Origin: an uncultured Gammaproteobacteria bacterium
GTDB taxonomy: Bacteria; Patescibacteriota; Microgenomatia; Daviesbacterales; UBA10151
Length of the DNA stretch: 64,000 bases
Reading direction: 5' to 3'
Assembly (NCBI GenBank): GCA_964394855.1
Contig: CAYMZD010000002.1
Span: forward strand, 131,964 to 195,963
Each line of letters begins with the position of its first letter. Position 1 is the stretch's first letter. Under the pieces are notes generated by a model that worked only from the letters and a program-made list of their open reading frames with translations, made no database searches and had not been told where the DNA came from. Below are positions 12,560-53,867 of the stretch, one piece after another. The position numbers were made by a program, and so were the translations under genes.

Positions 12560-14162
12560 CATTGAAGTATGATGGATGATAAAATACTAGAGTTACGGGG
12601 TGTAGTTCATCGGTAGAACGCTCGCATGGGGTGCGAGAAGTAGCAGGTTCAATTCCTGTCACCCCGACCAAAAGTGAATCCGCAAGGCTGGCCGGAATTT
12701 GGCTCTGGCTGGGTGGGGTCAGCCAGAGCTCTGCAAAGCCCTGATTATATTTTGGGACAAGCCGCCGATCAGTTAAAAAGAAGTTCGAGCCGACAGTTTT
12801 TGCTCCGATTGCTAAATCGGAGCATGTATTTTTTGCGCGCGCGATTTTTGCGCACGATAGTGCGCTACCAATGAAGTTTTTGAAAGGTTCGAGCCAACTC
12901 GAACCATTTATGTTTATTTGTCCCAATTCTTCATTAATTTTTAATTTTTCTTCGAAAAATTCGTTCTTTTTTGACTTGTAAACTTCGGGTTCAATAATCC
13001 CTTCTAAATATCCATCAAGAAGTTTATTAAGTTTTATATCCATGTCTTTCAGTTCCAACTCCAATTTTTCAATGTTCTCATGAATGGATACAGTTTCTAA
13101 TTTTTTATCTTCCTCTAACCGTTTGTACCAGTCATTAGCCCACTCTTGGGGTAACGCTACATCGTCAATGGCTTTTCTAAATTGGGTTTCTAATTCCGGT
13201 TCTGAAATATATTTTTGAGTGCAAGGTTTTAACTTTTTAGTGCAACGGTAGTAAATATATTCTACAGTTCTATCGGTACCTTTATAATATTTCTTGTGAG
13301 ATTCAGCGGTGATGCTTGCCCCGCACTCTCCGCATTTTATCAAACCCATAAAGGCAAAGTTATATCTTCTTTTTTTGTGTCTGTCTCTAAACTTTAATTC
13401 TTGCTGGACTTTTTGGAATAACTCTTTTGAAATTATTGTTTTATGATTTCCTTCGTGATACTCTCCGTTGTACTCCATAATGCCAACATAAAATCTATTG
13501 GCTAAAATTCTTCTGATTTCGTTTATATGTAATGGCTTATTATTTTTTCTTTTAAGATGAAATTTATGGAGAAACAAAGCAATATCGGTAAATGTTTTGT
13601 TGCCTTCTGCAAATAATTCAAATGCCTTCTTAATTGCTTTTAATTTTTCCGGCTCAACATCTATCCCTCTAGTTTTTGGATTGTTAATATAACCATCAGG
13701 AGCTTTGCCAGGATAAACACCGTTTCGGAGTTTTTGACGTAACCCTCTTTTTACATTTTCCGATAAATTATCCACATAATACTTAGACTGTCCAAAAGCT
13801 ATATTTAACATGAATTTTCCTTGGGGAGTATTTTCAAACCAAGAGGTCGGAAACTTTAGATCAAGCAGTTTTCCGGTATCAAGAAGATAAATTATTTTCC
13901 CGCCATCAATACTATTTCTTGCTAATCGGTCGGGGTGCCAGGCGATAATCCCTCCTATCTGTTGTTTTTCTATCTTCTTTAAAACTTCTGCAAATTTCTC
14001 TCTGCCAGGAACCTTAGCTGTTTTTTCTTCTTCCACAAATTCAGTAATTTCCAAACGTTCTCTTTTTGCGTACTCCTTCAACTCCGCTATTTGAGCAGAG
14101 ATAGATAATATCTGTTTGTCTTTTTCTTCCCGAGATTTTCTGCAATAGGCTATGTATTTCAT
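12444..14162 (-). CDS. Large serine recombinase (resolvase catalytic domain + recombinase domain + zinc ribbon + coiled coil); C-terminal about 107 codons read through IR1, the tRNA and the antisense end of the amidase gene
   Basis: N-terminal YCRKS...Q catalytic motif as in TnpX/Ccr/SpoIVCA-type large serine recombinases, DRLARN region, CGECG...YYRC zinc ribbon, long coiled-coil; no in-frame stop until 12444. Confidence 0.8.
   Translation of the reverse strand: MKYIAYCRKSREEKDKQILSISAQIAELKEYAKRERLEITEFVEEEKTAKVPGREKFAEVLKKIEKQQIGGIIAWHPDRLARNSIDGGKIIYLLDTGKLLDLKFPTSWFENTPQGKFMLNIAFGQSKYYVDNLSENVKRGLRQKLRNGVYPGKAPDGYINNPKTRGIDVEPEKLKAIKKAFELFAEGNKTFTDIALFLHKFHLKRKNNKPLHINEIRRILANRFYVGIMEYNGEYHEGNHKTIISKELFQKVQQELKFRDRHKKRRYNFAFMGLIKCGECGASITAESHKKYYKGTDRTVEYIYYRCTKKLKPCTQKYISEPELETQFRKAIDDVALPQEWANDWYKRLEEDKKLETVSIHENIEKLELELKDMDIKLNKLLDGYLEGIIEPEVYKSKKNEFFEEKLKINEELGQININGSSWLEPFKNFIGSALSCAKIARAKNTCSDLAIGAKTVGSNFFLTDRRLVPKYNQGFAELWLTPPSQSQIPASLADSLLVGVTGIEPATSRTPCERSTDELHPVTLVFYHPSYFNAIVAQRIWKVVYFSKQVKIIYQDIQFYLLLNVLRFWQF
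12596..12670 (+). tRNA. tRNA-Pro (anticodon GGG), CCA encoded
   Basis: Cloverleaf folds by hand: acceptor CGGGGTG/CACCCCG, D stem GTTC/GAAC, anticodon stem CTCGC/GCGAG with loop ATGGGGT (U33, GGG, G37), T arm GCAGG-TTCAATT-CCTGT, discriminator A, CCA. Confidence 0.85.
12665..12767. repeat. IR1 left copy (103 bp), starts inside tRNA-Pro 3' end (CGACCA)
   Basis: Perfect reverse-complement of 14209-14311; contains internal hairpin GCTCTGGCTG-N8-CAGCCAGAGC at 12702-12729. Confidence 0.9.
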
Positions 14163-15833: not shown

Positions 15834-15912
15834 TTTTATAATAACCGTTTTTCTTAGACAGTAAGAAATCTATACTTGACATTATTATAACAGATGTGGT
15901 AGGATTTACAAG

Positions 15913-15932
15913 GTGGTAAATAATAACCACCT
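15913..15932. promoter_or_regulatory. Inverted repeat GGTGGT-N8-ACCACC immediately upstream of lexA-like start; intergenic region also has three direct copies of ATAATAAC(C)
   Basis: Seen directly; candidate operator or SD-sequestering hairpin in the divergent promoter region 15834-15935. Confidence 0.35.
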
Positions 15933-15935
15933 ATT

Positions 15936-16559
15936 ATGCAATATTTACCCTCAAAAACAGAAAAAGTTTTACAAACTCTTATTCAATTCCAAAACAAAAA
16001 CGGTTACTCTCCTTCGATAACAGAGTTAAAAACTATCGTTGGAAATAAATCCACGCGCGGAATTGTTTTGCAATTAGATAAACTGCAGAAACTGGGTTAT
16101 ATCCAGCGTGAAAAAAACTCGAGGCGGGCAATTAAAATATTACGTAAGCCCATAAAAATTAATAAGGAAACTATGATTAATGTTCCTGTCCTTGGCGAGA
16201 TTAGGGCCGGCTATGGTTCTTTGGCTGAACAAAATATTGAAGGCTATGAAAAGATTCCCCTACTCTTGGCGAAAGGTCAAAGAGATGTCTTCATACTTCG
16301 GGTCAAAGGGACAAGTATGTTAAAAGCGGGCATAAATCCAGGAGATTTAGCCATAATAGCACCACAAAACAACGCTAATAACGGAGACATTGTAATTGCT
16401 TTTGATCCAGATGATGAAACAGCAACGCTAAAAAGATTTAAGCGATTGCAAGATTATGTTATGCTTTTACCAGAAAGCGATGATCCAAGTTATCAGCCTA
16501 AAATCGGAAAACAATTTGTAATACAAGGTAAATTTATAGACTTATTAAGAAAAAACTAA
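15936..16559 (+). CDS. LexA-family repressor (winged-helix DNA-binding domain + S24 peptidase domain)
   Basis: N-terminal LexA DNA-binding domain (GYSPSITELKTIVGNKSTRG...LQKLGYIQRE...RAIKIL), Ala-Gly cleavage site (IRAGYG), catalytic Ser in GTSM and Lys in KRFKR. Confidence 0.75.
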   Translation: MQYLPSKTEKVLQTLIQFQNKNGYSPSITELKTIVGNKSTRGIVLQLDKLQKLGYIQREKNSRRAIKILRKPIKINKETMINVPVLGEIRAGYGSLAEQNIEGYEKIPLLLAKGQRDVFILRVKGTSMLKAGINPGDLAIIAPQNNANNGDIVIAFDPDDETATLKRFKRLQDYVMLLPESDDPSYQPKIGKQFVIQGKFIDLLRKN

Positions 16560-16564
16560 CTCTT

Positions 16565-18463
16565 ATGATTTTTAAACCTGCCATAAATAATTCAAAAAAG
16601 ATTTTCTCAATATACAATTCTCTTTCTTCAAGTGGCTTATCAGATGCTCAAATAATTAGTGCCCTTTTAAATTTGTTGAAGACAAAAAATATTGATAATG
16701 ACCTGACGTTGCTCGTTTTATTTTCTGATCTCTACACAAATCATAATTTAGATTTTATTAGTGTAATAGAATTAATTGGCCTTGCTCACCAAAAAGCTAA
16801 AGAAAAATCCTCCATTTCAGGCACTGATGAAAGAAAACATAATGGGATCTACTATACTAATTATTCCATTGCTAAACGAATAGCCGAAGAAACTCTTTCT
16901 TTTTATGGTAAAGATTTTGATCCTGCCAAAAATAAATTTCTTGAACCCTGTGCCGGAACGGGGATATTTGGGATTGCTTATTTAGATACAATTTTTCAGT
17001 TAGATAAAAAGTATATTTTAAATGCACAAAATATTATAAATAATATGTTTTTTGCTGACATAGACGGAGAAGCTATTGCATTGTTAAAAACAATTATTAA
17101 TCTTTATCTTAAAGCAAAATATTCTGTTAACGCATCAGTACCGGATAAAAATATCTTTATTGGCAACGTCCTATTTAGAAATAATACTGATGGGTCTATA
17201 TCAAAAAATGATCTTACAATTCAATTCAATATAAAAGATGGGTTCGATGTAGTATTAACAAACCCTCCTTACAAATTACTTAAGGCAAATTCAAACAAGT
17301 ATAATGAGGTTACGGACAATTACAAAGATGAGATAACAAAAATATTGGATTTTATTAGAAAACACAATGCTTATAAATTTAATTCAGGTACTTTAAATCT
17401 TTATAAACTTTTTGTTGAAGAAATTCTCGAAAATTATACTAAAAAAGATGGCAAGATAGGATTGCTTATTCCATCTACATTACTTAGTGATAAACAAAGT
17501 TACGAATTAAGAAAAAGAATACTTGAGAATTACTACCTCTCAACAATATATACGATTCCAGAAAAAAATAACTTCTTTTTAGATATTAGCCAAGCATTCT
17601 GTTTTTTTTCCCTAGATAAAAGTAATTCTTCGGGTGAATTAATACTAAAAACAAATGTATCCGATGTGGGAGGGTTTAATAAAGAAAATATATCCGTAAG
17701 CAAAATGCGGATAAGTATGATTTCCACCTTACAGGAAATAATTTCTACCGACAAAATAGGCTGGCAGATCTTAAATAAGATGCACAAAAATAAAAAACTT
17801 AAAGAGATTTCATCTATTACTAATTTAAGAGGCGAACTCGATTTAACTCTGGATAAAAAATTCATCATAAATGAAGGAAGTGAATATAATCTCCTTCGTG
17901 GTAATGGAATAAAGGAGTTTATTTTCAGTAAAGACAATCTATTTGTTGATAATAAATTTATTAACAAATTAAACGGAAAAGCAAAATTTTTATTATCAGA
18001 GAGAATAGTATGCCAACAAATATCAAATATAAATCTTACAAAGAGATTAAAGTTCTCTAAAGTGCCCAAAAATATTGTTTTAGGAAACTCTTGTAATTTC
18101 ATTGTCACAAATTCAGATACTCTATTCTTGGAATCCAATATTAGCCTAGATTATTTACTGGGCGTTCTTAATTCATTTCTCTTAAACTGGCGGTTTCAAT
18201 TAACTAGCTCCAACAATCACATAGGCAACTATGAATTAGACGAACTTCCTTTGGCGATTCCTGACTTAAAACAAAAATCAATAGTAGAGGATTTTGTTGA
18301 TAAACTTGTTGAAGATCCAAACAATAATGAATATAAAGTTAAATTAAATGTTGCAGTATTTGATATATATGGATTAGACCATGAAGAAGCTTTATACATA
18401 TTAGATAAGCATCGAAAAAACGATGTGGCAGAATTAACAGGTAAATATATGCATCAACTATGA
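16565..18463 (+). CDS. N6-adenine DNA methyltransferase, gamma class (motif X - I - IV order), with C-terminal target-recognition region
   Basis: GIYYTNYSIAKRI (motif X), EPCAGTGIFG (motif I), NPPY (motif IV); starts 5 nt after lexA-like stop. Confidence 0.8.
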   Translation: MIFKPAINNSKKIFSIYNSLSSSGLSDAQIISALLNLLKTKNIDNDLTLLVLFSDLYTNHNLDFISVIELIGLAHQKAKEKSSISGTDERKHNGIYYTNYSIAKRIAEETLSFYGKDFDPAKNKFLEPCAGTGIFGIAYLDTIFQLDKKYILNAQNIINNMFFADIDGEAIALLKTIINLYLKAKYSVNASVPDKNIFIGNVLFRNNTDGSISKNDLTIQFNIKDGFDVVLTNPPYKLLKANSNKYNEVTDNYKDEITKILDFIRKHNAYKFNSGTLNLYKLFVEEILENYTKKDGKIGLLIPSTLLSDKQSYELRKRILENYYLSTIYTIPEKNNFFLDISQAFCFFSLDKSNSSGELILKTNVSDVGGFNKENISVSKMRISMISTLQEIISTDKIGWQILNKMHKNKKLKEISSITNLRGELDLTLDKKFIINEGSEYNLLRGNGIKEFIFSKDNLFVDNKFINKLNGKAKFLLSERIVCQQISNINLTKRLKFSKVPKNIVLGNSCNFIVTNSDTLFLESNISLDYLLGVLNSFLLNWRFQLTSSNNHIGNYELDELPLAIPDLKQKSIVEDFVDKLVEDPNNNEYKVKLNVAVFDIYGLDHEEALYILDKHRKNDVAELTGKYMHQL

Positions 18464-19590
18464 TTCATAATCACATAACTTATCCATTGAGTGATCTAGA
18501 TATGCAAATGGTAATAGCCGTGCCACAAGGAGGCAATTGGCGCAATATTCCTCTCGACATTCCTTCAAAAAGACTCGAACAAATCAGAAAATCAGGCGGT
18601 AGAACTACACTGTATGGACGGCTTTCTTGGGATAGTCCAAGCTATACGGTAACTACTTATTTTAATCGTCCCGGAAATGGAACATATGTGCATCCCGAAC
18701 AAAATAGAGTTCTTAGCGCAAGAGAAGCAGCAAGACTACAATCATTTACAGATAGCTTCGTGTTTTCTGGTACAAAAGGAAGCTTGTGTATCCAAATAGG
18801 AAATGCTGTTCCACCATTAATGGCTTATTTTTTAGGTAAACAAATTAAAAAGCAAACAAACACAACTAATGTTGTTGACTTATTTTGTGGTGCAGGTGGT
18901 TTAAGCAAAGGATTTGAATGGGCAGGATATAATATTATTGCTGCAAACGATAACTATAAACAGGCATGCGAAACATATAAAATTAATCACCCACATACTA
19001 TTCTTATTGAAGGAGATATTACTAAAAAGATGGTGAAAGATGCTTTATTCGGAGCTATTAAAGACAAGAAAATAGATATCGTTATTGGAGGTCCTCCTTG
19101 TCAAGGTTTTTCTCATGCAGGGAAGAGGCTAGTAGATGATCCAAGAAATTTTCTTTTCAAAGAATTTGTTGAGATTGTAAAGAAAATAAAACCTAAGGTT
19201 GTTGTATTAGAGAATGTAGAAGGGATTCTAACAATGAATTATGGGAAAAGTTTTGAAAGCATAAAGGAGAGTTTCCGTGAACTAGGGTACAAATTGGATG
19301 GAAGAAAACTACATGCTGTTAAATATGGCGTGCCACAAAAGAGAAAAAGAGTTGTTATGATCGGTGTTTTGGAAGGAGATCCTAGCAAATGTTATCCGGA
19401 AGAGGTAATAAAAAATGAAAATCGATATTTAACTGTTCGGGAAGCAATAGATAATCTACCAGAAATAGTGGTAAATGGTGGTAACCATATTATAAGAAAG
19501 AAAACTAATCCAAAATCTGAATATCAAAAATTCTTAGCAGGCTTAACGGCAATAGAAGATTTTTCAGATTATTTGTCTGCAAGAAGTTAA
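18460..19590 (+). CDS. C5-cytosine DNA methyltransferase with circularly permuted motif order (IX-X then I-IV-VI-VIII)
   Basis: N-terminal SAREAARLQSFTDSF (IX) and QIGNAVPP (X), followed by DLFCGAGG (I), GGPPCQGFS (IV), ENV (VI), QKRKR (VIII), TVREAIDNLP; 4-nt ATGA overlap with upstream MTase. Confidence 0.8.
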   Translation: MIHNHITYPLSDLDMQMVIAVPQGGNWRNIPLDIPSKRLEQIRKSGGRTTLYGRLSWDSPSYTVTTYFNRPGNGTYVHPEQNRVLSAREAARLQSFTDSFVFSGTKGSLCIQIGNAVPPLMAYFLGKQIKKQTNTTNVVDLFCGAGGLSKGFEWAGYNIIAANDNYKQACETYKINHPHTILIEGDITKKMVKDALFGAIKDKKIDIVIGGPPCQGFSHAGKRLVDDPRNFLFKEFVEIVKKIKPKVVVLENVEGILTMNYGKSFESIKESFRELGYKLDGRKLHAVKYGVPQKRKRVVMIGVLEGDPSKCYPEEVIKNENRYLTVREAIDNLPEIVVNGGNHIIRKKTNPKSEYQKFLAGLTAIEDFSDYLSARS

Positions 19591-20756
19591 TAGATAAGTT
19601 TCTGCGATAATTTTTCAGCAACTAATTTAAAAATATTTCTTAGTTCCTCTAAGGCTTCGTTTTCTTTCTCTAATTTTAAATAATTTAGTAATACTTTCAG
19701 TTTTCCACGGATTTCATCGGTCTGCCAATCCTTTAAATGTCGGTTTGTTTTTGAAGAATATTCTAATAGTGATTCAAACGAAATTCTTATATATCTCTTT
19801 GCATTGTTTTTATATTGCTTTTTATTTCCTTCCACCTTAATCATTTCCTTATAGTATCCAGTTTTTGGATCGAAACCATCGAATTTAATAGAATAGTTTG
19901 CGTATTCGGGATGGAGAAAATTTTTAATTAAAAAGTTCTTGTGACCCTTTTGGTAGACTTCTGAAAAAATTGAAAGAACGTAGTGCATGTTTTCTCGCAT
20001 AAGTTTACTTGCCAGTAGAGCATCGGGTTCATTTTTAACATTGTGTTTTATCAAGTCCCATAATGCTTTTGAATGTTCGGAAATTACTTCCTGATTTTTC
20101 TCTTCTTTTATTAAGGCTTGAATATCACCTAATGTCATCCTATTGTTTCTTGCAGAATTGGCGGCTCTCGAAAGTGGCCTAAAACTCGGCCTATGTCTAA
20201 AACCTAATGAAATAGGACCAAGGTGATCAGCGCTTATGTCATTTTTTTGAAACTCTTTCATCAACCAGCTTGCTGCTTTCCAATCTCCATCAGACCAATT
20301 TTCATATGCACGTCTATCCTCGCCATATCTTGAAAGATTGCTTTTATGTCTTCCTTTATCGAATTTACTCCTGCAACAGAGGTTATAACTGTGATAACCA
20401 TCAAGCCTATCGGGAGCATTACTCATTGCTCCTGGACTAAGCCCTCCCTTTTTATTAGGATAAATATAATCAAGTTTCATTGATCTACCACAAATTTGGC
20501 AAGGTTTATCCCCAGTAGGATGAATTGCTCTCGCGGTTTTTGATATCCACGCACCCTCCTTAGGTATTCCAAGTTTTTCTCTCTGCTCATCCCACCATTT
20601 CAACCGGGCTAATCCCATTTCACTACTTCTGGCAACAATCCATCTTATTCCACCATTTTCCTTATACAGAAAAGGCATGCCTCTGTAATTAGGATGATTC
20701 ACAATAAATTTCATGTACTTAATGAAGTTTGGATGCCAAGTCCTTTTAGTTCTCAT
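19587..20756 (-). CDS. Putative restriction endonuclease (Cys-rich, possible HNH-like D-H motif), convergent with the MTase pair
   Basis: CQICG...NLCCRSKF...ADHLGPISLGFRH; stop codons of MTase (19590) and this ORF (19587) overlap; no confident family assignment from sequence alone. Confidence 0.45.
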   Translation of the reverse strand: MRTKRTWHPNFIKYMKFIVNHPNYRGMPFLYKENGGIRWIVARSSEMGLARLKWWDEQREKLGIPKEGAWISKTARAIHPTGDKPCQICGRSMKLDYIYPNKKGGLSPGAMSNAPDRLDGYHSYNLCCRSKFDKGRHKSNLSRYGEDRRAYENWSDGDWKAASWLMKEFQKNDISADHLGPISLGFRHRPSFRPLSRAANSARNNRMTLGDIQALIKEEKNQEVISEHSKALWDLIKHNVKNEPDALLASKLMRENMHYVLSIFSEVYQKGHKNFLIKNFLHPEYANYSIKFDGFDPKTGYYKEMIKVEGNKKQYKNNAKRYIRISFESLLEYSSKTNRHLKDWQTDEIRGKLKVLLNYLKLEKENEALEELRNIFKLVAEKLSQKLIY

Positions 20757-21404
20757 AAAATTTTGACTGCAAAGATTATCGCTAGCAATTATATAGCTTT
20801 TTGCTCCGAAATGCCAGAAAAAATGAATGTTTTTGTTTCTTTTTGGCGGCTCCGCCGCCCCCGCTCGCCTCCTGGGATAATTTCCCTTAAAGGAGGGCTG
20901 CCGTCAGAGAAAATCTCGGAGTTTGGAATTTTCTAAAAACTTTCGGATAGGCAGCCCGACATTCGCGAGCCCCGTGAGAATTACTACATTTTTTTAAAAG
21001 ACGGGGCGAGCCATCGGAATTAGTTGCGCAGTCCCGCCTCGAGGCGGGACAAGCGATAGGAAACAGAAGGGGTACAAATAAGAAAGGCGGGGGCGAAAAG
21101 CGGAATACCCCCGCAACGGCAGGCGATACTAAAACAGAACCAAAGATTACCAGAGACTGTAAAGCGAAAATAGAAAAGCAAAGATATCGGCGAGTCGCCC
21201 CCTAGGGCGACCTCTCGCCCAAAAGCGGGGGTGCCGCTTCCATTATTTTGGGTGGGTGGGTTAATGGGAATTTAGTACAGCCTACATTCTGCATTTTTGT
21301 TTTAAATATTTTTCTGCTAAAATAGGGAGGGTAGGCGGATTATAAATAATAAAAATCGCGCGCATTAAAATACTGAAAGTATTTTGCAAAAAATACTAGA
21401 GCGA

Positions 21405-21492
21405 GGCCGAAGGCCGAGCGGAACAAAAGCCCGCCGAAGGCGGGCTACCGATTCGACTTAAAGCGGGTTCGAATTTTTTTGTAAAGCTCGAC
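21405..21492. repeat. IR2 right copy (88 bp), right boundary of element
   Basis: Perfect reverse-complement of 14308-14395; contains hairpin AGCCCGCC-GAA-GGCGGGCT. Confidence 0.9.
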
Positions 21493-21581
21493 TGAAAGAG
21501 GGTTTCCGTCCGATCAGACCCGGATGTTTTCTAAACTTGACATTTTAGAGTCAATCTTGTTAGTATATAGATACTAAAATC

Positions 21582-21617
21582 TCCTGCGACACCGAAAGGT
21601 CTTCGCAGGATTTTTTT
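21582..21617 (+). terminator. Rho-independent terminator-like hairpin (TCCTGCGAC-ACC-GAAA-GGT-C-TTCGCAGGA + T7)
   Basis: Strong GC stem with GAAA tetraloop followed by TTTTTTT, preceded 40 nt upstream by TTGACA; no upstream + strand CDS. Confidence 0.5.
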
Positions 21618-21655
21618 GACAAAAATTTCCCTCTATTTGATGTATAATCAATTTT

Positions 21656-22204
21656 ATGAAGAAACAAAGATGTATCATTCTTATTGATGGAAGCAACCTT
21701 TACTTCAAGCTAAAGGATTTGAAACTACATAATCTCCTAAGTTTTGATTTTTCTAAGTTCGTAAAGAAACTAGCAAAAGATTGTGATGTTGTTAGTATTA
21801 CTTACTATGTGGGGAAAATAAGGACAGATGGAAGTGAAAAGACCCAAAAACTATTCAATAACCAACGAAAGCTATTTGCTCACCTTAAAAAGAATGGAGT
21901 AACCTATTCTCTTGGTTATCTTTTAAAGTCTGATGGCGTTTTCCATGAAAAAGGTGTTGATGTAAATATTGCAGTGGATATTCTTGTAGCCACATACGAG
22001 GACTTAGCTGATAGAATAATTATTACTTCTTCAGATACAGATCTTCTGCCTGCTATTAAGAAAGCAAAAGAGAAAGGTAAGATAGTTGAGTATGTGGGAT
22101 TTTCCCATAAACCCAGTGTGGCAATGGTGGCTAATTGTTCAGAATCGACACTTCTTAAAAAAGAAGATTTAGAACCTTTTACTCTTAAATCCTATTCGAT
22201 TTAA
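21656..22204 (+). CDS. NYN-domain (LabA/DUF88-like PIN-fold) protein
   Basis: IDGSNLY...GVDVNIAVD...SSDTDL acidic residues in NYN arrangement. Confidence 0.7.
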   Translation: MKKQRCIILIDGSNLYFKLKDLKLHNLLSFDFSKFVKKLAKDCDVVSITYYVGKIRTDGSEKTQKLFNNQRKLFAHLKKNGVTYSLGYLLKSDGVFHEKGVDVNIAVDILVATYEDLADRIIITSSDTDLLPAIKKAKEKGKIVEYVGFSHKPSVAMVANCSESTLLKKEDLEPFTLKSYSI

Positions 22205-22237
22205 AGCGAGTTCGGATTTTTTTAAAAAGGTCGACCC
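22199..22237. repeat. Degenerate third copy of the element-end motif (TTCGAy-TTAAAGCGrGTTCGrATTTTTTT-N5-AAAGs-TCGAC)
   Basis: About 33/38 identity with 21455-21492 (end of IR2); lies between NYN and NUDIX genes. Confidence 0.4.
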
Positions 22238-22738
22238 ATGAAAATTTCACTGGAAAAAGCCAAGCAGAATAAGCTTTTTTATTTTGTAGTTACTGGGGTA
22301 ATTTATCATCCCAAATTAAAAAAATGTTTAATACTGCAGCGGTCCAAAAAAGAAGTAGCTCATCCTGGGCTATGGGGGGTTATCGGCGGAAAGCTGGAAT
22401 GGGATGATTTAAAAAATAACCCCATTACTCGTAAAAACTTTGATATTTTGGATTGGGAGGGAATGGTAGAAAAATTAATCTTGCGAGAAGCTAAGGAAGA
22501 ATGTGGTCTGGAAGTCGTTGACCCAAGATATCTAAATAGTGTGGCTTATCTTCGAACAGACAGAGTGCCAACCATTTGTTGCAAATTTGCTGTTAAAAGA
22601 AAAAAGGGGAGAATAAAATTAGCCCCGGAATTTGATGATTTTAACTGGGTTAATGTTCAAGAAGTGAAAAAGTATAAATGTATTCAGGGAATTGCGGAAG
22701 AAGTTGGTAAAACTATAAGAATATACTTACCTACTTGA
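22238..22738 (+). CDS. NUDIX hydrolase
   Basis: Nudix box G-x5-E-x7-REAKEECG-x-E. Confidence 0.8.
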   Translation: MKISLEKAKQNKLFYFVVTGVIYHPKLKKCLILQRSKKEVAHPGLWGVIGGKLEWDDLKNNPITRKNFDILDWEGMVEKLILREAKEECGLEVVDPRYLNSVAYLRTDRVPTICCKFAVKRKKGRIKLAPEFDDFNWVNVQEVKKYKCIQGIAEEVGKTIRIYLPT

Positions 22739-22822
22739 GTGTAACATATATGTATGGATACACGAATACTTAGGAAAAGTTGGTACCTTGCAAAAAGTTT
22801 TATAGTGTGATTTAATCAATAT

Positions 22823-23893
22823 ATGGTTGGAAGTTCCAATAATGCAGATGCTAAATTAGCTGCTATTACGGCTGCCATAGCCGGTATCCAAAAACAATAT
22901 GGTACAGGTGCCATTATGCGCTTGGGTGAGCGGGTGGAGAGACTGACCATTGATGTCATCCCGACAGGCTCTATTGCTTTGGACTTGAGCTTAGGTGTGG
23001 GGGGTTTACCCAAAGGTCGAGTGATTGAAATTTACGGACCAGAGGCTTCTGGAAAGACTACCATAGCTTTACATGTTATAGCAGAGGCGCAAAAAAAAGG
23101 CGGGGTGGCAGCCTTTATAGATGCCGAGCATGCGCTAGATCCTCAACGCGCTCAAAAAATTGGAGTTAATTTAGATGACCTGCTGATTTCCCAACCTGAT
23201 ACTGGTGAGCAAGCTTTGGAAATTGCCGAAGCGCTGATCCGTTCTGGTGGGATTGATGTGGTGGTGATAGATTCGGTAGCAGCGCTAACTCCCCGGGCAG
23301 AAATTGAAGGAGAAATGGGAGATGCAGTGATGGGCATGCAAGCTCGGTTAATGTCACAAGCTCTTAGAAAGCTGACAGCTGCTATTGCTAATACCAGAAC
23401 GATCGTAATTTTTACCAATCAGCTGCGACAAAAAATTGGGGTGATGTTTGGTAATCCGGAAACAACCCCAGGTGGTTTGGCATTAAAATTTTATGCATCA
23501 GTTCGCCTAGATATTAGAAAAATTGAAAATATCAAAATGGGTGATGTGGTAGTTGGTTCGCGCCACAGGGTCAAAGTAGTTAAAAATAAAGTGGCTCCCC
23601 CATTTCGTATGGCCGAATTTGATATGGATGAAAATGGTATATCAAAAGAAGGCGAGCTTTTAGATATTGGTGTGGAGCTGGGAATTTTGACAAAATCAGG
23701 AGCCTTTATCAAATGGGATGATAATATTTTGGGGCAGGGTCGGCCGGCAGCTGTAGTTTATTTAAAGGAAAACCCCAAGGAAAAGGAAAAACTGGAAAAA
23801 GAAATTAGGGAGGCTTGGGGCGCGCAGAAACAAGGTAAGGAGATGGTTGTTGGAAAAGAAGAAGAGGATAAAGACATAGAAGAAGCAGTTTAA
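22823..23893 (+). CDS. recA: Recombinase A
   Basis: Walker [11 protein letters not shown]1/L2 loops, full-length similarity pattern to RecA. Confidence 0.9.
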
Positions 23894-25380
23894 TGTTCAG
23901 GCTTCTAATTTTAATCATTTTCTTGCTGGCCGTATTATCTCGTTTTTTATATTTCCCCGAAGATTTATATTTTGCCTTTGATCAAGCCAGAGATGGTTTT
24001 AAATCTCTGGAAGTAGTAAATGGAGATATTAAAATAATTGGTCCTCCGTCTGCCGCCTCGGATAAAATTTTTGCCGGACCGCTGATTTATTATATTTTCG
24101 GCCCGATTTATTTTTTAGGAAACAACAATCCGGAAGTTGTCTCTGCATTTTTGCGAGTTTGGAATAGCTTGGGTGTATTTTTGGTTATCGGGATAGGATG
24201 GATTTTATTTAATAAATGGGTGGGATTTTTAGCCGGCTTTTTCTATGCCATCTCCTATGAAGCTAGCCAATATTCTTTATTTTTATCCCATCAACCAATG
24301 GCTTCAGTCACTGTTTTACTTTTTTATTTAGGCCTGGCACTATTTATTTTTAAAAAAATCCAATGGGGACTTACTTTATCTTTTCTGGGATTAGGTCTTT
24401 CTATACAATTCCACTTTGTCTATACATTATTAATGGTAGTGCTTATATTATTTTTCATAATTTTCAAAAAACATTACCAGTTTAGTTTAAAACATATTTT
24501 TTATGCAGTAACAATTTTTCTTATAACCAGCTCTACATTTATTTTGGCGGAGGCGAAATTTCAATTTAGATTCTTAAGAACTTTTTTTGAGGGAGGAGGT
24601 TTTAAATTTTATCCTCAAGCAGCTACTTACTCTATGAAGAGGTTTTTACATGATAATATTTTGGCAAGTGATGTACTTTTATGGATAGTGGGTCTGCTAC
24701 TTACTGGTGCCTTAATTTATTTTTTAAAAAAGAAAGAAGTTAAATTTCCCATAATATTTTTAATGGTTTGGTTTCTAGTTGGAGTGTCTCCCTATCTTCT
24801 TTCGGGAACTAATAGTTATTATTACTCTGCAGCAGCTAATGTTTCACTTTTGCTTTTTATATCCTATGTTATCTATTACTTACTATCAACTAAAATTCTT
24901 CTGGCTCTTTTAATTTTGATAGCAGTTTCAGTAAATAACTTATACTTGATTATTAACAATAACCCAAAGGGGGTTAATAGAGAATTTATAATTCAACCTG
25001 GGATGCTGCTAACATCAGAAAAACTTGTCCTGGATTATATTTATCAAAAAGCCCAAGGTCGTTTTTTTGCAGTCAATGGTTTAACCGTTCCTTTGGGAGT
25101 AAATACCACTTGGAGTTATTTATTTGAATGGTACGGACAACAAAAATATGGATACCTACCGGTTTGGGGTATGGAAGTGGCTTTAGGTTTTCCAGGACAT
25201 TTAAAAGTAGAAACAAAAAGATCAAACCTTCCAGATAAAAGATTTACTATACTAGAGCCAACAGTCGGTATTAGAGATGTTGATATAAAAAAATTTTTTC
25301 AAGAAGAAAATTTTTTTTCTAAGGTCGTGGAAGAGAAAAAATTTGGTACTATAGCTGTACAATATAGACAAAGAATTTAA
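23893..25380 (+). CDS. Polytopic membrane protein, GT-C-fold glycosyltransferase-like (ArnT/PMT-like)
   Basis: about 12 TM helices, N-terminal periplasmic-loop acidic motif region; family call by architecture only. Confidence 0.5.
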   Translation: MFRLLILIIFLLAVLSRFLYFPEDLYFAFDQARDGFKSLEVVNGDIKIIGPPSAASDKIFAGPLIYYIFGPIYFLGNNNPEVVSAFLRVWNSLGVFLVIGIGWILFNKWVGFLAGFFYAISYEASQYSLFLSHQPMASVTVLLFYLGLALFIFKKIQWGLTLSFLGLGLSIQFHFVYTLLMVVLILFFIIFKKHYQFSLKHIFYAVTIFLITSSTFILAEAKFQFRFLRTFFEGGGFKFYPQAATYSMKRFLHDNILASDVLLWIVGLLLTGALIYFLKKKEVKFPIIFLMVWFLVGVSPYLLSGTNSYYYSAAANVSLLLFISYVIYYLLSTKILLALLILIAVSVNNLYLIINNNPKGVNREFIIQPGMLLTSEKLVLDYIYQKAQGRFFAVNGLTVPLGVNTTWSYLFEWYGQQKYGYLPVWGMEVALGFPGHLKVETKRSNLPDKRFTILEPTVGIRDVDIKKFFQEENFFSKVVEEKKFGTIAVQYRQRI

Positions 25381-25382
25381 TA

Positions 25383-25844
25383 ATGGAACAAGCGAAGTTA
25401 CTACAGAAAATTTATAGACTTTTATCCCAAAGAGTGCGAAGTGAAAAAGAAATTCGTGATTATCTAAAAAGGAAAAAAGCTGACATTGATGTTGTGGAAA
25501 AAATAATTGATCAATTAAAACAAATGAGTCTTATAGATGATGGGAAGTTTGCTAAGGATTGGGTAGAGTCTCGAAGAAGATCTAGGCAGAAAGGTATAAA
25601 AGCGCTCAAAATAGAGCTTTTACAAAAGGGAATCGAGCGCCAAATTATTGAGGAAGTTATCAGTAGAGAGATTCTAGTTGTTAGTGAAACGCAAGTCGCA
25701 GAACGGGCATTAGAGATGAAAATGAGGGTATGGAAAAATTTTGATCAAATGAATTTTAAGAAAAAAGCCATTGATTTTTTACTTCGCAAAGGCTTTGAAT
25801 ATGAGGTAGTAAAAGGAGTTATTGATAAATTTTTAAGAAAATAG
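25383..25844 (+). CDS. recX: RecX-like regulatory protein
   Basis: 153 aa three-helix-repeat pattern similar to RecX; near recA. Confidence 0.65.
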   Translation: MEQAKLLQKIYRLLSQRVRSEKEIRDYLKRKKADIDVVEKIIDQLKQMSLIDDGKFAKDWVESRRRSRQKGIKALKIELLQKGIERQIIEEVISREILVVSETQVAERALEMKMRVWKNFDQMNFKKKAIDFLLRKGFEYEVVKGVIDKFLRK

Positions 25845-31938: not shown

Positions 31939-32890
31939 TATTTCACACAAGACAATAATTTTTGTCACCATATTTTTGTTAAGTCTTTGGATTGTTTATC
32001 ATATCCTAGATTTATTATTACTTTTATTTGTGGCTTTAATTTTTATGTCTGCTCTATCTCCTTTGATAAGTTTTCTTCAAAAACTAAAAATTCCTAAGGT
32101 TTTGGGAGTTTTGATAATTTATCTATTATTTTTGGGAGCAATTGGCGGACTGTTGACAGTTTCTTTTACTCCTTTGATTGAAGAAACAACCAAACTGGCA
32201 CTGACTCTGCCATCTGCTTTGGCAGATTTGCTAAAAGTTAATAATTTAGATCCAAATGTTATTCAATCTGAAGTGAGTAATTTATCAAAAAATTTGTTTT
32301 CCACTACTAGGGCAATTTTTGATAACATCATTACCATAATTTTTCTTTTGGTCTTGACATTTTATCTATTGCTGGAAAGAGAAAACTTGGAAAAAAGAGC
32401 TGCTTTCTTATTCACGGGCCAAGAAGACAGGATACAAAAGTTATTAATGGAGATAGAGGGAAAATTAGGTGCCTGGCTTCGTGGACAACTTTTTTTGAGT
32501 TTAATTATTGGGGTGCTGGTTTATTTAGGGCTATCTGTTTTACAGATTCCTTATGCCCTATCGCTGTCAATTTTAGCTGCCTTTACTGAAGTTATTCCTG
32601 TAATCGGCCCAATTATTTCTGCTATTCCAGCCATTCTTTTAGCATTGACTATTTCTCCGGTTTTAGCGGCAGTTGTTACAGCAATGTATTTTGTTATCCA
32701 ACAATTAGAAAATCATCTGGTGGTGCCACAGGTAATGAAAAAGGCGGTAGGTTTAAATCCTTTGGTGGTAATTTTGGCAATTGCTGTCGGGGGAAGGCTT
32801 TTAGGTATTGGCGGAGCCCTTTTGGCAGTACCTATTGTGGTGGTTTTGCAAATAATTGTGTTGGATATTCTAAGAGAAAAAAATGCCTAG
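31922..32890 (+). CDS. AI-2E family transporter (PerM/UPF0118)
   Basis: 8 TM segments with conserved C-terminal FTEVIPVIGPIIS...AVPIV region. Confidence 0.75.
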   Translation: MSRKIDISHKTIIFVTIFLLSLWIVYHILDLLLLLFVALIFMSALSPLISFLQKLKIPKVLGVLIIYLLFLGAIGGLLTVSFTPLIEETTKLALTLPSALADLLKVNNLDPNVIQSEVSNLSKNLFSTTRAIFDNIITIIFLLVLTFYLLLERENLEKRAAFLFTGQEDRIQKLLMEIEGKLGAWLRGQLFLSLIIGVLVYLGLSVLQIPYALSLSILAAFTEVIPVIGPIISAIPAILLALTISPVLAAVVTAMYFVIQQLENHLVVPQVMKKAVGLNPLVVILAIAVGGRLLGIGGALLAVPIVVVLQIIVLDILREKNA

Positions 32891-33216
32891 GAAGCTTGTA
32901 AGCCAGATTCTGTTTTAAGGCGATTATTTATCTAGTGCTCCTGACTTAGACCTTTAGGCGAGTAACCTGGTCATATCTAGGATTGCAGCGGGGAGGATTG
33001 CCTCTTTTCACCCTCTACCCCATACCAGATGGTATAGGGTGAGTCGTAGTCTCTGTGGCTCTCCAGCCAAAGGCTGGTCGTCCTTTGGACGAAACTAGCG
33101 GTTACCCGTGGATCGATTACTCGACCCCACCCTTACTCTGTGCTGTCTGGACTTTCCTGAACGTAACAAATCACTTGGTGACTGTGTACGTCCCAATCAC
33201 CCATCTTCCTAGGCCC
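32885..33216 (-). ncRNA. rnpB: RNase P RNA (bacterial), about 332 nt
   Basis: Minus-strand read contains CAGGAAAGTCCAGAC (CR-I/P4 5' strand) and AACAGAATCTGGCTTACA (CR-V/P4 3' strand); P1 formed by 5' GCCTAGGAAG and 3' CTTCCTAGGC; lies in an ORF-free gap. Confidence 0.8.
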
Positions 33217-53796: not shown

Positions 53797-53867
53797 CTGC
53801 GGGACTAGGATTTGAACCTAGATAAACAGATCCAGAGTCTGTTGTCCTACCATTAGACGATCCCGCA
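53797..53867 (-). tRNA. tRNA-Gln (anticodon CUG), CCA not encoded
   Basis: Minus-strand cloverleaf: acceptor UGCGGGA/UCCCGCA (U1-A72 as in bacterial tRNA-Gln), anticodon stem ACAGA/UCUGU, loop CUCUGGA, T arm CTAGG-TTCAAAT-CCTAG, discriminator G. Confidence 0.8.

Follow-up and report, generated by a model that had tools for sequence, protein, structure and literature searches.

A circularly permuted C5 cytosine methyltransferase within a predicted Alw26I/Eco31I/Esp3I-family restriction-modification system behind lexA in a Candidatus Daviesbacteria genome

The stretch of DNA analysed here, 64,000 nucleotides (nt) of a Candidatus Daviesbacteria genome (hereafter the window), carries at 16565-20756 three adjoining genes, M1, M2 and R. 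Judged by their sequences, they very probably constitute a complete type IIS restriction-modification (R-M) system of the Alw26I/Eco31I/Esp3I family, in which the open reading frame (ORF) at 18460..19590 would be the 5-methylcytosine (m5C) methyltransferase. An original prediction about this ORF had claimed that motifs IX and X come ahead of motifs I to VIII in a single frame of 376 amino acids (aa). The genes are arranged as follows:

16565..18463, plus strand: M1, an N6-methyladenine (m6A) DNA methyltransferase of the Alw26I/Eco31I/Esp3I family, 632 aa (TIGR02987; Pfam Eco57I, N6_Mtase and TaqI_C).
18460..19590, plus strand: M2, a circularly permuted C5 cytosine DNA methyltransferase, 376 aa, ATG start (ORF listing, PF00145, blastp, AlphaFold2).
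19587..20756, minus strand: R, a predicted type IIS restriction endonuclease of the Alw26I family, HNH / His-Me finger type, short form of 389 aa (PF09665, TIGR02986).

The 3' end of M1 overlaps the start of M2 by 4 nt (ATGA), and R is convergent with M2, their stop codons overlapping. Within M2, all the motifs named in the original prediction were found at the places given for them:

18460..18858, plus strand: N-terminal segment, residues 1-133, with part of the variable (target-recognition) region and motifs IX and X (Pfam, M.HaeIII alignment).
18721-18741, plus strand: motif IX, REAARLQ, residues 88-94 (motif search, as for the other motifs below).
18799-18813, plus strand: motif X, GNAVP, residues 114-118.
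18859..19587, plus strand: C-terminal segment, residues 134-376, with motifs I, IV, VI and VIII, TVREAIDNLP and, in the last ~40 aa, variable region (Pfam, M.HaeIII alignment, motif search).
18883-18900, plus strand: motif I, FCGAGG, residues 142-147.
19093-19104, plus strand: motif IV, PPCQ, residues 212-215, with the catalytic Cys214 assigned by homology.
19210-19218, plus strand: motif VI, ENV, residues 251-253.
19336-19350, plus strand: motif VIII, QKRKR, residues 293-297.
Residues 325-334, plus strand: the TVREAIDNLP element.

All six C5 methyltransferase motifs are present, in the order IX-X-I-IV-VI-VIII, and as a sequence match this set far exceeds chance. The homology is also clear from profile searches. 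The whole protein matches PF00145 with an E value of 1.3e-73, the match falling into two stretches (residues 36-131 on profile positions 231-324, and residues 137-342 on positions 2-203), and it passes TIGR00675 with 208.7 bits (cut-off 100.65). When the two halves are scanned separately, both match in swapped order: in residues 1-132, the stretch 36-131 covers positions 231-324 of the 324 in PF00145 (E 1.3e-14), and residues 133-376 cover positions 2-203 (E 3.1e-58). The significant homology of the N-terminal part to motifs IX and X disposes of the idea that the resemblance is fortuitous. The same exchange of order is observed in alignments with M.HaeIII (M2 137-303 with M.HaeIII 2-161, and M2 83-131 with M.HaeIII 273-322) and with 3g7u (M2 136-337 with 3g7u 3-204, and M2 77-129 with 3g7u 311-363). 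The variable region of 3g7u left unmatched comprises 106 residues, and its counterpart in M2 consists of ~39 C-terminal plus 76 N-terminal residues; therefore, the ends of the M2 chain lie inside the variable region, and the target-recognition domain would indeed be split over both termini, as had been predicted. These alignments support the reading of M2 as a C5 cytosine methyltransferase that is encoded in one ORF and circularly permuted, its new termini lying within the variable region. A rearrangement of the plant DRM type, in which VI-X precede I-V, was considered and rejected: motifs I, IV, VI and VIII of M2 are contiguous and canonical (residues 142-297) and only IX-X have moved.

An odd motif order in a metagenome-assembled genome (MAG) can be mimicked by a frameshift or by the chimeric joining of two C5 methyltransferase gene parts, and that oddity is the sole basis of such an explanation here. 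The distribution of M2 makes it vanishingly improbable. An identical 376-aa protein is encoded on the NCBI MAG contig JACQIZ010000003.1 (GCA_016198205.1) and recurs in two Logan assemblies that are independent and stem from different runs, and a protein search with M2 returned at least 120 clusters at 62-86 % identity and 95-100 % coverage, with lengths of 352-385 aa. In addition, when GTDB species were scanned, each represented by a single genome, 223 loci with an M2 relative emerged; the best 80 of the 223 were fetched and their six-frame ORFs searched with four window proteins. All 80 are collinear with M2 from residues 1-4. Experimentally characterised enzymes have the same motif order, and the predicted structure is one compact fold. 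The frameshift or fusion artefact, which the original prediction had named as a possible refutation, is thus excluded by conservation of the full-length architecture across assemblies, clusters and loci.

In an alignment of 51 M2 homologues all catalytic and cofactor residues are invariant (F142, G144, G146, G147, P212-P213-C214-Q215, E251-N252-V253, Q293, R295, R297, R88-E89 and G114-N115-A116-V117-P118). AlphaFold2 run on this alignment gives a single compact and confident fold (mean predicted local distance difference test 91.8, predicted template modelling score 0.92), in accordance with the suggestion that the two pieces reassemble. Foldseek of the model against the PDB retrieves M.HhaI, M.HaeIII, 3g7u and DNMT1 as best matches, with E about 1e-12. 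In this comparison just 170-210 columns are aligned (template modelling score 0.38-0.44), and the match directly demonstrated is that of the catalytic half, not of the whole fold. Such short alignments are expected because the aligner depends on sequence order and the protein is permuted.

The relationship of M2 to characterised enzymes was addressed by blastp against ten sequences transcribed from the S5 Dataset of PMC5944983. In the transcribed M2.Eco31I, N127 and Q233 fall on GNAV and PCQ, consistent with the residue numbers of PMC3526304. Enzymes of the Alw26I/Eco31I/Esp3I type are collinear with M2 from query residues 1-4 to 305-375, with E values of 1e-98 to 1e-125. The identities to M2 are the following:

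M.Alw26I C-domain: 51 %.
M.BsmAI C-domain: 50 % (E 1e-125).
M.BsmBI: 48 %.
M2.BcoDI: 45 %.
M2.Eco31I: 45 %.
M.Esp3I: 44 %.
M2.BsaI: 44 %.
M.BssHII: 36 % over 322 aa.

The Alw26I, Eco31I, Esp3I, BsaI, BsmAI, BsmBI and BcoDI systems contain the best-known natural permuted bacterial C5 methyltransferases, with IX-X before I-VIII (PMC5944983). A REBASE survey listed 27 such sequences, every one permuted in the variable region and termed 'type H/J' (PMC5944983, 2018). The permutation of this family was published by Bitinaite et al. 2002, as cited in PMC5944983, and M2.Eco31I has been presented as an example of C5 methyltransferase sequence permutation and used in enzyme engineering (PMC3526304). 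By sequence, M2 is an ordinary new member of the Alw26I/Eco31I/Esp3I family, the one where analysis of this permutation began, and its rotated order is a long-known family hallmark rather than a novelty.

The gene linkage is conserved as well. Every one of the 80 fetched loci has an Alw26I-type M1 linked to the permuted M2, whose alignment begins at its first residues. M1 and M2 stand as separate genes in 28 of them, as in the window and in the Eco31I/BcoDI/BsaI systems; in the other 52 they are fused into one M1::M2 gene, as in the Alw26I/BsmAI/Esp3I/BsmBI systems. In 77 of the 80, an Alw26I-type R lies next to them. The hosts of the M2-relative loci include Patescibacteria, many Bacillota, Campylobacterota, Bacteroidota, Malaciobacter, Staphylococcus simulans, Prevotella and others. 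Accordingly, the permuted topology is the ancestral one of a large and widely transferred family. The original prediction had called permuted m5C methyltransferases rare and given the M.BssHII and DRM types as the known examples. The topology is rare among C5 methyltransferase families, so far in agreement; that list, however, omitted the Alw26I/Eco31I/Esp3I-type enzymes, and the topology is not rare in nature. In three Bacillota loci with a fused M1::M2 (L044, L074 and L085), a second ORF situated 0.7-2 kb from the cassette matches solely M2 residues 125-302, the motif I-VIII half. It may be an ordinary, non-permuted C5 methyltransferase.

The partner genes belong to the same family. The best NCBIfam model for M1 is TIGR02987 (E 2.9e-93, model positions 1-512 of 523), and R passes PF09665 (RE_Alw26IDE) with E 9.6e-119 and 398 bits (cut-off 23.1). 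Several observations weigh against a complete and functional system. M1 reaches 313 bits on TIGR02987, below the curated cut-off of 353.5, and R reaches 388 bits (E 5e-116) on TIGR02986, below 443.85; moreover, a 66-aa insert and the two CxxC pairs found on either side of the HNH motif in the long form of the enzyme (e.g., L004:7091-8506) are absent from R, a putative endonuclease. The scores below the curated cut-offs are taken to indicate that the system is a diverged branch. A stronger interpretation would be that the system is degenerate, with R inactive and M1 and M2 kept as orphan methyltransferases that act in epigenetics or anti-restriction, outside any working restriction system. This would account for the low NCBIfam scores and for the loss of the insert and of all four long-form cysteines around the HNH motif, yet it is improbable in view of how R is conserved. 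Short-form R occurs at full length in at least 120 clusters (388-412 aa, 58-81 % identity), and a 14-sequence alignment shows no variation at D177-H178, N200 and N205 or at about 110 further positions, from which purifying selection is argued. Across loci, R also co-varies with M1 and M2 (Spearman 0.60-0.77), and the site GTCTC is depleted in the window. Truncation of R in the window was likewise ruled out: its N- and C-termini match those of the 455-472 aa long form, from which it differs by two internal deletions common to the at least 120 clusters (the 66-aa segment and a 13-aa segment with one CxxC), the second CxxC being replaced. Since the short form is conserved in so many clusters at such identities, it is best read as a selected variant and not as a wreck, and R as a predicted endonuclease.

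The identities of R and M2 are out of step between some loci (R 41-49 % against M2 82 % in L004; R 76-77 % against M2 62-63 % in L023). This mismatch in the sequences points to a shuffling of modules.

It is established for the family that one strand of its asymmetric site, which contains GTCTC/GAGAC, carries protective m5C and the other protective m6A, and that the target of M2.Eco31I is the inner cytosine of GGTCTC (Bitinaite et al. 1992, cited in PMC3526304). A separate enzyme is needed for each strand because of this asymmetry. From homology with these systems, we infer the catalytic activity, the methylated base and the exact recognition sequence of the window system as follows. M2 would bind S-adenosylmethionine with FCGAGG and the motif-X helix (GNAVPP, Asn115), and catalysis would proceed via Cys214 (PPCQ), Glu251 (ENV) and Arg295/Arg297 (QKRKR), as judged from the homologous M2.Eco31I and M.Alw26I. 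M2 would modify the inner cytosine on the GTCTC strand, M1 would make N6-methyladenine in GAGAC on the opposite strand, and the convergent HNH endonuclease R would cleave DNA that lacks methylation, a few bases away from the site. The M2 chain starts inside the variable region, with IX-X before I-VIII, and the same three-dimensional fold would be rebuilt because the motif-X helix packs against motif I in canonical enzymes anyway.

Most likely, the system recognises a GTCTC core. GTCTC/GAGAC is depleted in the window, with 28 occurrences against 53.9 +/- 6.8 in dinucleotide shuffles, all 100 of which gave higher counts; under a maximal-order Markov model the observed/expected ratio is 0.68 (rank 5 of 512). 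The variable region of M2 has the short 'SGGRTTLYG' form common to the GTCTC enzymes Alw26I, BsmAI and BcoDI, without the 5-residue insertion which the GGTCTC and CGTCTC enzymes carry there, and the best blastp matches of M2 are BsmAI and Alw26I. The same family and mechanism could, however, be combined with a 6-bp site (GGTCTC as in Eco31I/BsaI, CGTCTC as in Esp3I/BsmBI) or with a new extension of the GTCTC core. The counts speak in part for such a site: GGTCTC is the most depleted NGTCTC hexamer (4 observed against 14.8 expected at order 1, or 10.4 at order 3), those with A, T or C in the first position reach only 0.5-0.64, and numbers as small as these do not separate GTCTC from GGTCTC. The N-terminal stretch IPLDIPSKRLEQIR of M2 also resembles IPLDVPSKRIEQIR of M2.Eco31I, and the identity of M2 to the GGTCTC/CGTCTC enzymes (44-48 %) is only slightly under that to the GTCTC enzymes (45-51 %). 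Nevertheless, all four NGTCTC hexamers are depleted (observed/expected 0.27-0.64), and with the short variable region and the order of the blastp matches this leaves a longer site rather unlikely.

By far the most depleted pentamer in the window (1-64000) is a different one, CTCAG/CTGAG, with 10 occurrences against 58 (maximal-order Markov) or 80 (first-order), a ratio of 0.12-0.17. It suggests strong selection by another R-M specificity, of the CTCAG type, in the organism.

Directly ahead of M1 lies a lexA gene, with the following elements:

15876-15905, plus strand: promoter-like TTGACA-18-TG-TAGGAT (consensus match only).
15912-15931, plus strand: perfect palindrome GGTGGTAAATAATAACCACC (GGTGGT-N8-ACCACC), a candidate LexA operator just ahead of the lexA ATG (consensus match only).
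15936..16559, plus strand: lexA, 207 aa, 5 nt upstream of M1 (TIGR00498).

The LexA protein scores 150.7 bits over the full length of the TIGR00498 equivalog model (cut-off 110.95), and its cleavage site Ala91-Gly92, Ser127 and Lys166 are invariant in 27 relatives. The gene is regarded as a bona fide lexA whose product is competent for cleavage. The palindrome GGTGGTAAATAATAACCACC has a single mismatch-free occurrence in the window. Across the loci compared, no conserved LexA operator was found upstream of lexA; the upstream regions are not conserved and the palindromes differ by lineage. No promoter-like site comparable to the one ahead of lexA was seen between lexA and M1, so that co-transcription of lexA and M1 is likely and, on sequence grounds, lexA, M1 and M2 probably form one unit headed by lexA. 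Within the close clade of the M2-anchored set, lexA stands directly upstream of M1 in 16 of 19 informative loci, and in one lineage (L011/L031) lexA and M1 form a single fusion ORF of 841 aa.

The simplest explanation of this linkage, that LexA is a co-mobile 'controller' of the cassette, was rejected in that simple form, as the divergence of LexA is uncorrelated with that of M1, M2 and R: pairwise LexA identities give Spearman coefficients of 0.13, 0.00 and 0.09 with these three, against the 0.60-0.77 found among the R-M genes. For instance, L026 and L028 are 90, 89 and 88 % identical in M1, M2 and R, and 28 % in LexA. The closest LexA relatives (52-94 % identity) have other DNA-methyltransferase or R-M-like genes behind lexA, in the same orientation. 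The modules observed behind their lexA genes are:

Vsr and two further ORFs.
An N6_N4 methyltransferase and a convergent ORF.
Two Dam-like methyltransferases and a convergent ORF.
A ParB-methyltransferase and a second N6_N4 methyltransferase.

An R-M or methyltransferase module follows lexA in 5 of the 6 informative LexA-anchored contexts from the Candidate Phyla Radiation (CPR); one relative is without it, and one further contig ends at lexA. By comparison, no methyltransferase lies downstream of lexA in any of 58 generic lexA loci, where the recognisable neighbours are a Y-family polymerase, YceG and similar genes. These control loci come from a metagenome scan with the LexA alignment, which gave just distant LexAs (33-46 %). 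The difference between 5/6 and 0/58 is significant (Fisher's exact test, p = 8e-7), and the slot behind lexA is associated with R-M genes. No report of LexA-linked or LexA-controlled R-M systems was found in the literature searched. The slot may serve SOS-inducible methylation, or it may be no more than a variable-region hot spot beside lexA. A fuller version of the first reading, put forward here as no better than tentative and rather doubtful, is that the protective methyltransferases would be transcribed together with lexA and hence be SOS-inducible; DNA breaks caused by self-restriction would then raise methylation, a transcriptional form of restriction alleviation, and cassettes would be selected for the slot or targeted to it.

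Behind the R-M system, in the part of the window at 21656-25844, there are NYN-domain and NUDIX genes, recA (22823-23893), a PMT_2 glycosyltransferase-like gene and recX (25383-25844). In consequence of this layout lexA, recA and recX all fall in a 10-kb span that also contains the R-M system, inserted between them. Upstream of R, some 900 bp (20757-21655) contain no ORF of at least 50 aa and have a GC content of 0.445, against 0.38 for the genome, with several G+C-rich hairpins (e.g., 21405-21446 and 21190-21215). An Rfam search of these 900 bp gave no significant family (best E 0.5), and the stretch may be a structured RNA of no known family, repeat remnants or decayed genes. The window also carries these RNA genes:

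12596-12667, plus strand: tRNA gene.
32883-33212, minus strand: bacterial RNase P class A RNA, 102.9 bits (gathering score 100).
53797-53867, minus strand: tRNA gene.

The RNase P RNA and the two tRNAs are ordinary housekeeping RNAs and confirm a cellular chromosome.

With regard to its significance, M2 adds an uncharacterised member from CPR bacteria, 44-51 % identical to characterised enzymes, to a permuted topology known since 2002. The permuted family is far larger than the 27 REBASE entries of 2018, as 223 species-level loci were found, with the same m6A partner in all 80 of those fetched. From a practical point of view, this uncultured lineage may provide a new set of GTCTC-type isoschizomers. 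Should the lexA linkage prove functional, it would represent a new mode of R-M regulation and bear on how CPR bacteria with tiny genomes handle self-restriction; the lexA slot is the sole part that might repay further work, the permuted M2 itself, as originally stated, being of low interest.

Among known systems, the closest in organisation are those of M2.Eco31I, M2.BcoDI and M2.BsaI, type IIS enzymes for GGTCTC or GTCTC. They share the motif order of the window M2 and are likewise stand-alone genes, with lengths of 381-396 aa against 376 aa and an end-to-end identity of 44-45 %, and they too adjoin an Alw26I-family m6A methyltransferase and an HNH endonuclease. The engineered residues N127 and Q233 of M2.Eco31I correspond to N115 and Q215 of the window M2. 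The window system differs from these three in its CPR host (Daviesbacteria), in its short-form R without the Cys4 zinc site and in the position of its methyltransferase genes directly behind lexA; in the variable region, M2 is also without the 5-aa insertion of M2.Eco31I and M2.BsaI. M.Alw26I, M.BsmAI, M.Esp3I and M.BsmBI are bifunctional m6A::m5C fusions, whereas the window has M1 and M2 as separate ORFs that share the four letters ATGA; nonetheless, it is the m5C halves of fusion enzymes that show the highest identity to M2 (50 % for BsmAI, 51 % for Alw26I), with the same permuted order and the same starting residue. M.BssHII, which is said to have been described by Xu and colleagues in 1997 as the first permuted bacterial C5 methyltransferase, has the topology of M2, being likewise broken within the variable region and beginning with IX-X, but it is more distantly related, is part of a type IIP system (GCGCGC) and lacks an Alw26I-type m6A partner. 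The eukaryotic DRM methyltransferases of plants, reportedly described by Cao and colleagues in 2000, are also rearranged C5 methyltransferases; in these enzymes the order VI-X before I-V places the break inside the catalytic domain, while that of M2 falls between motifs VIII and IX.

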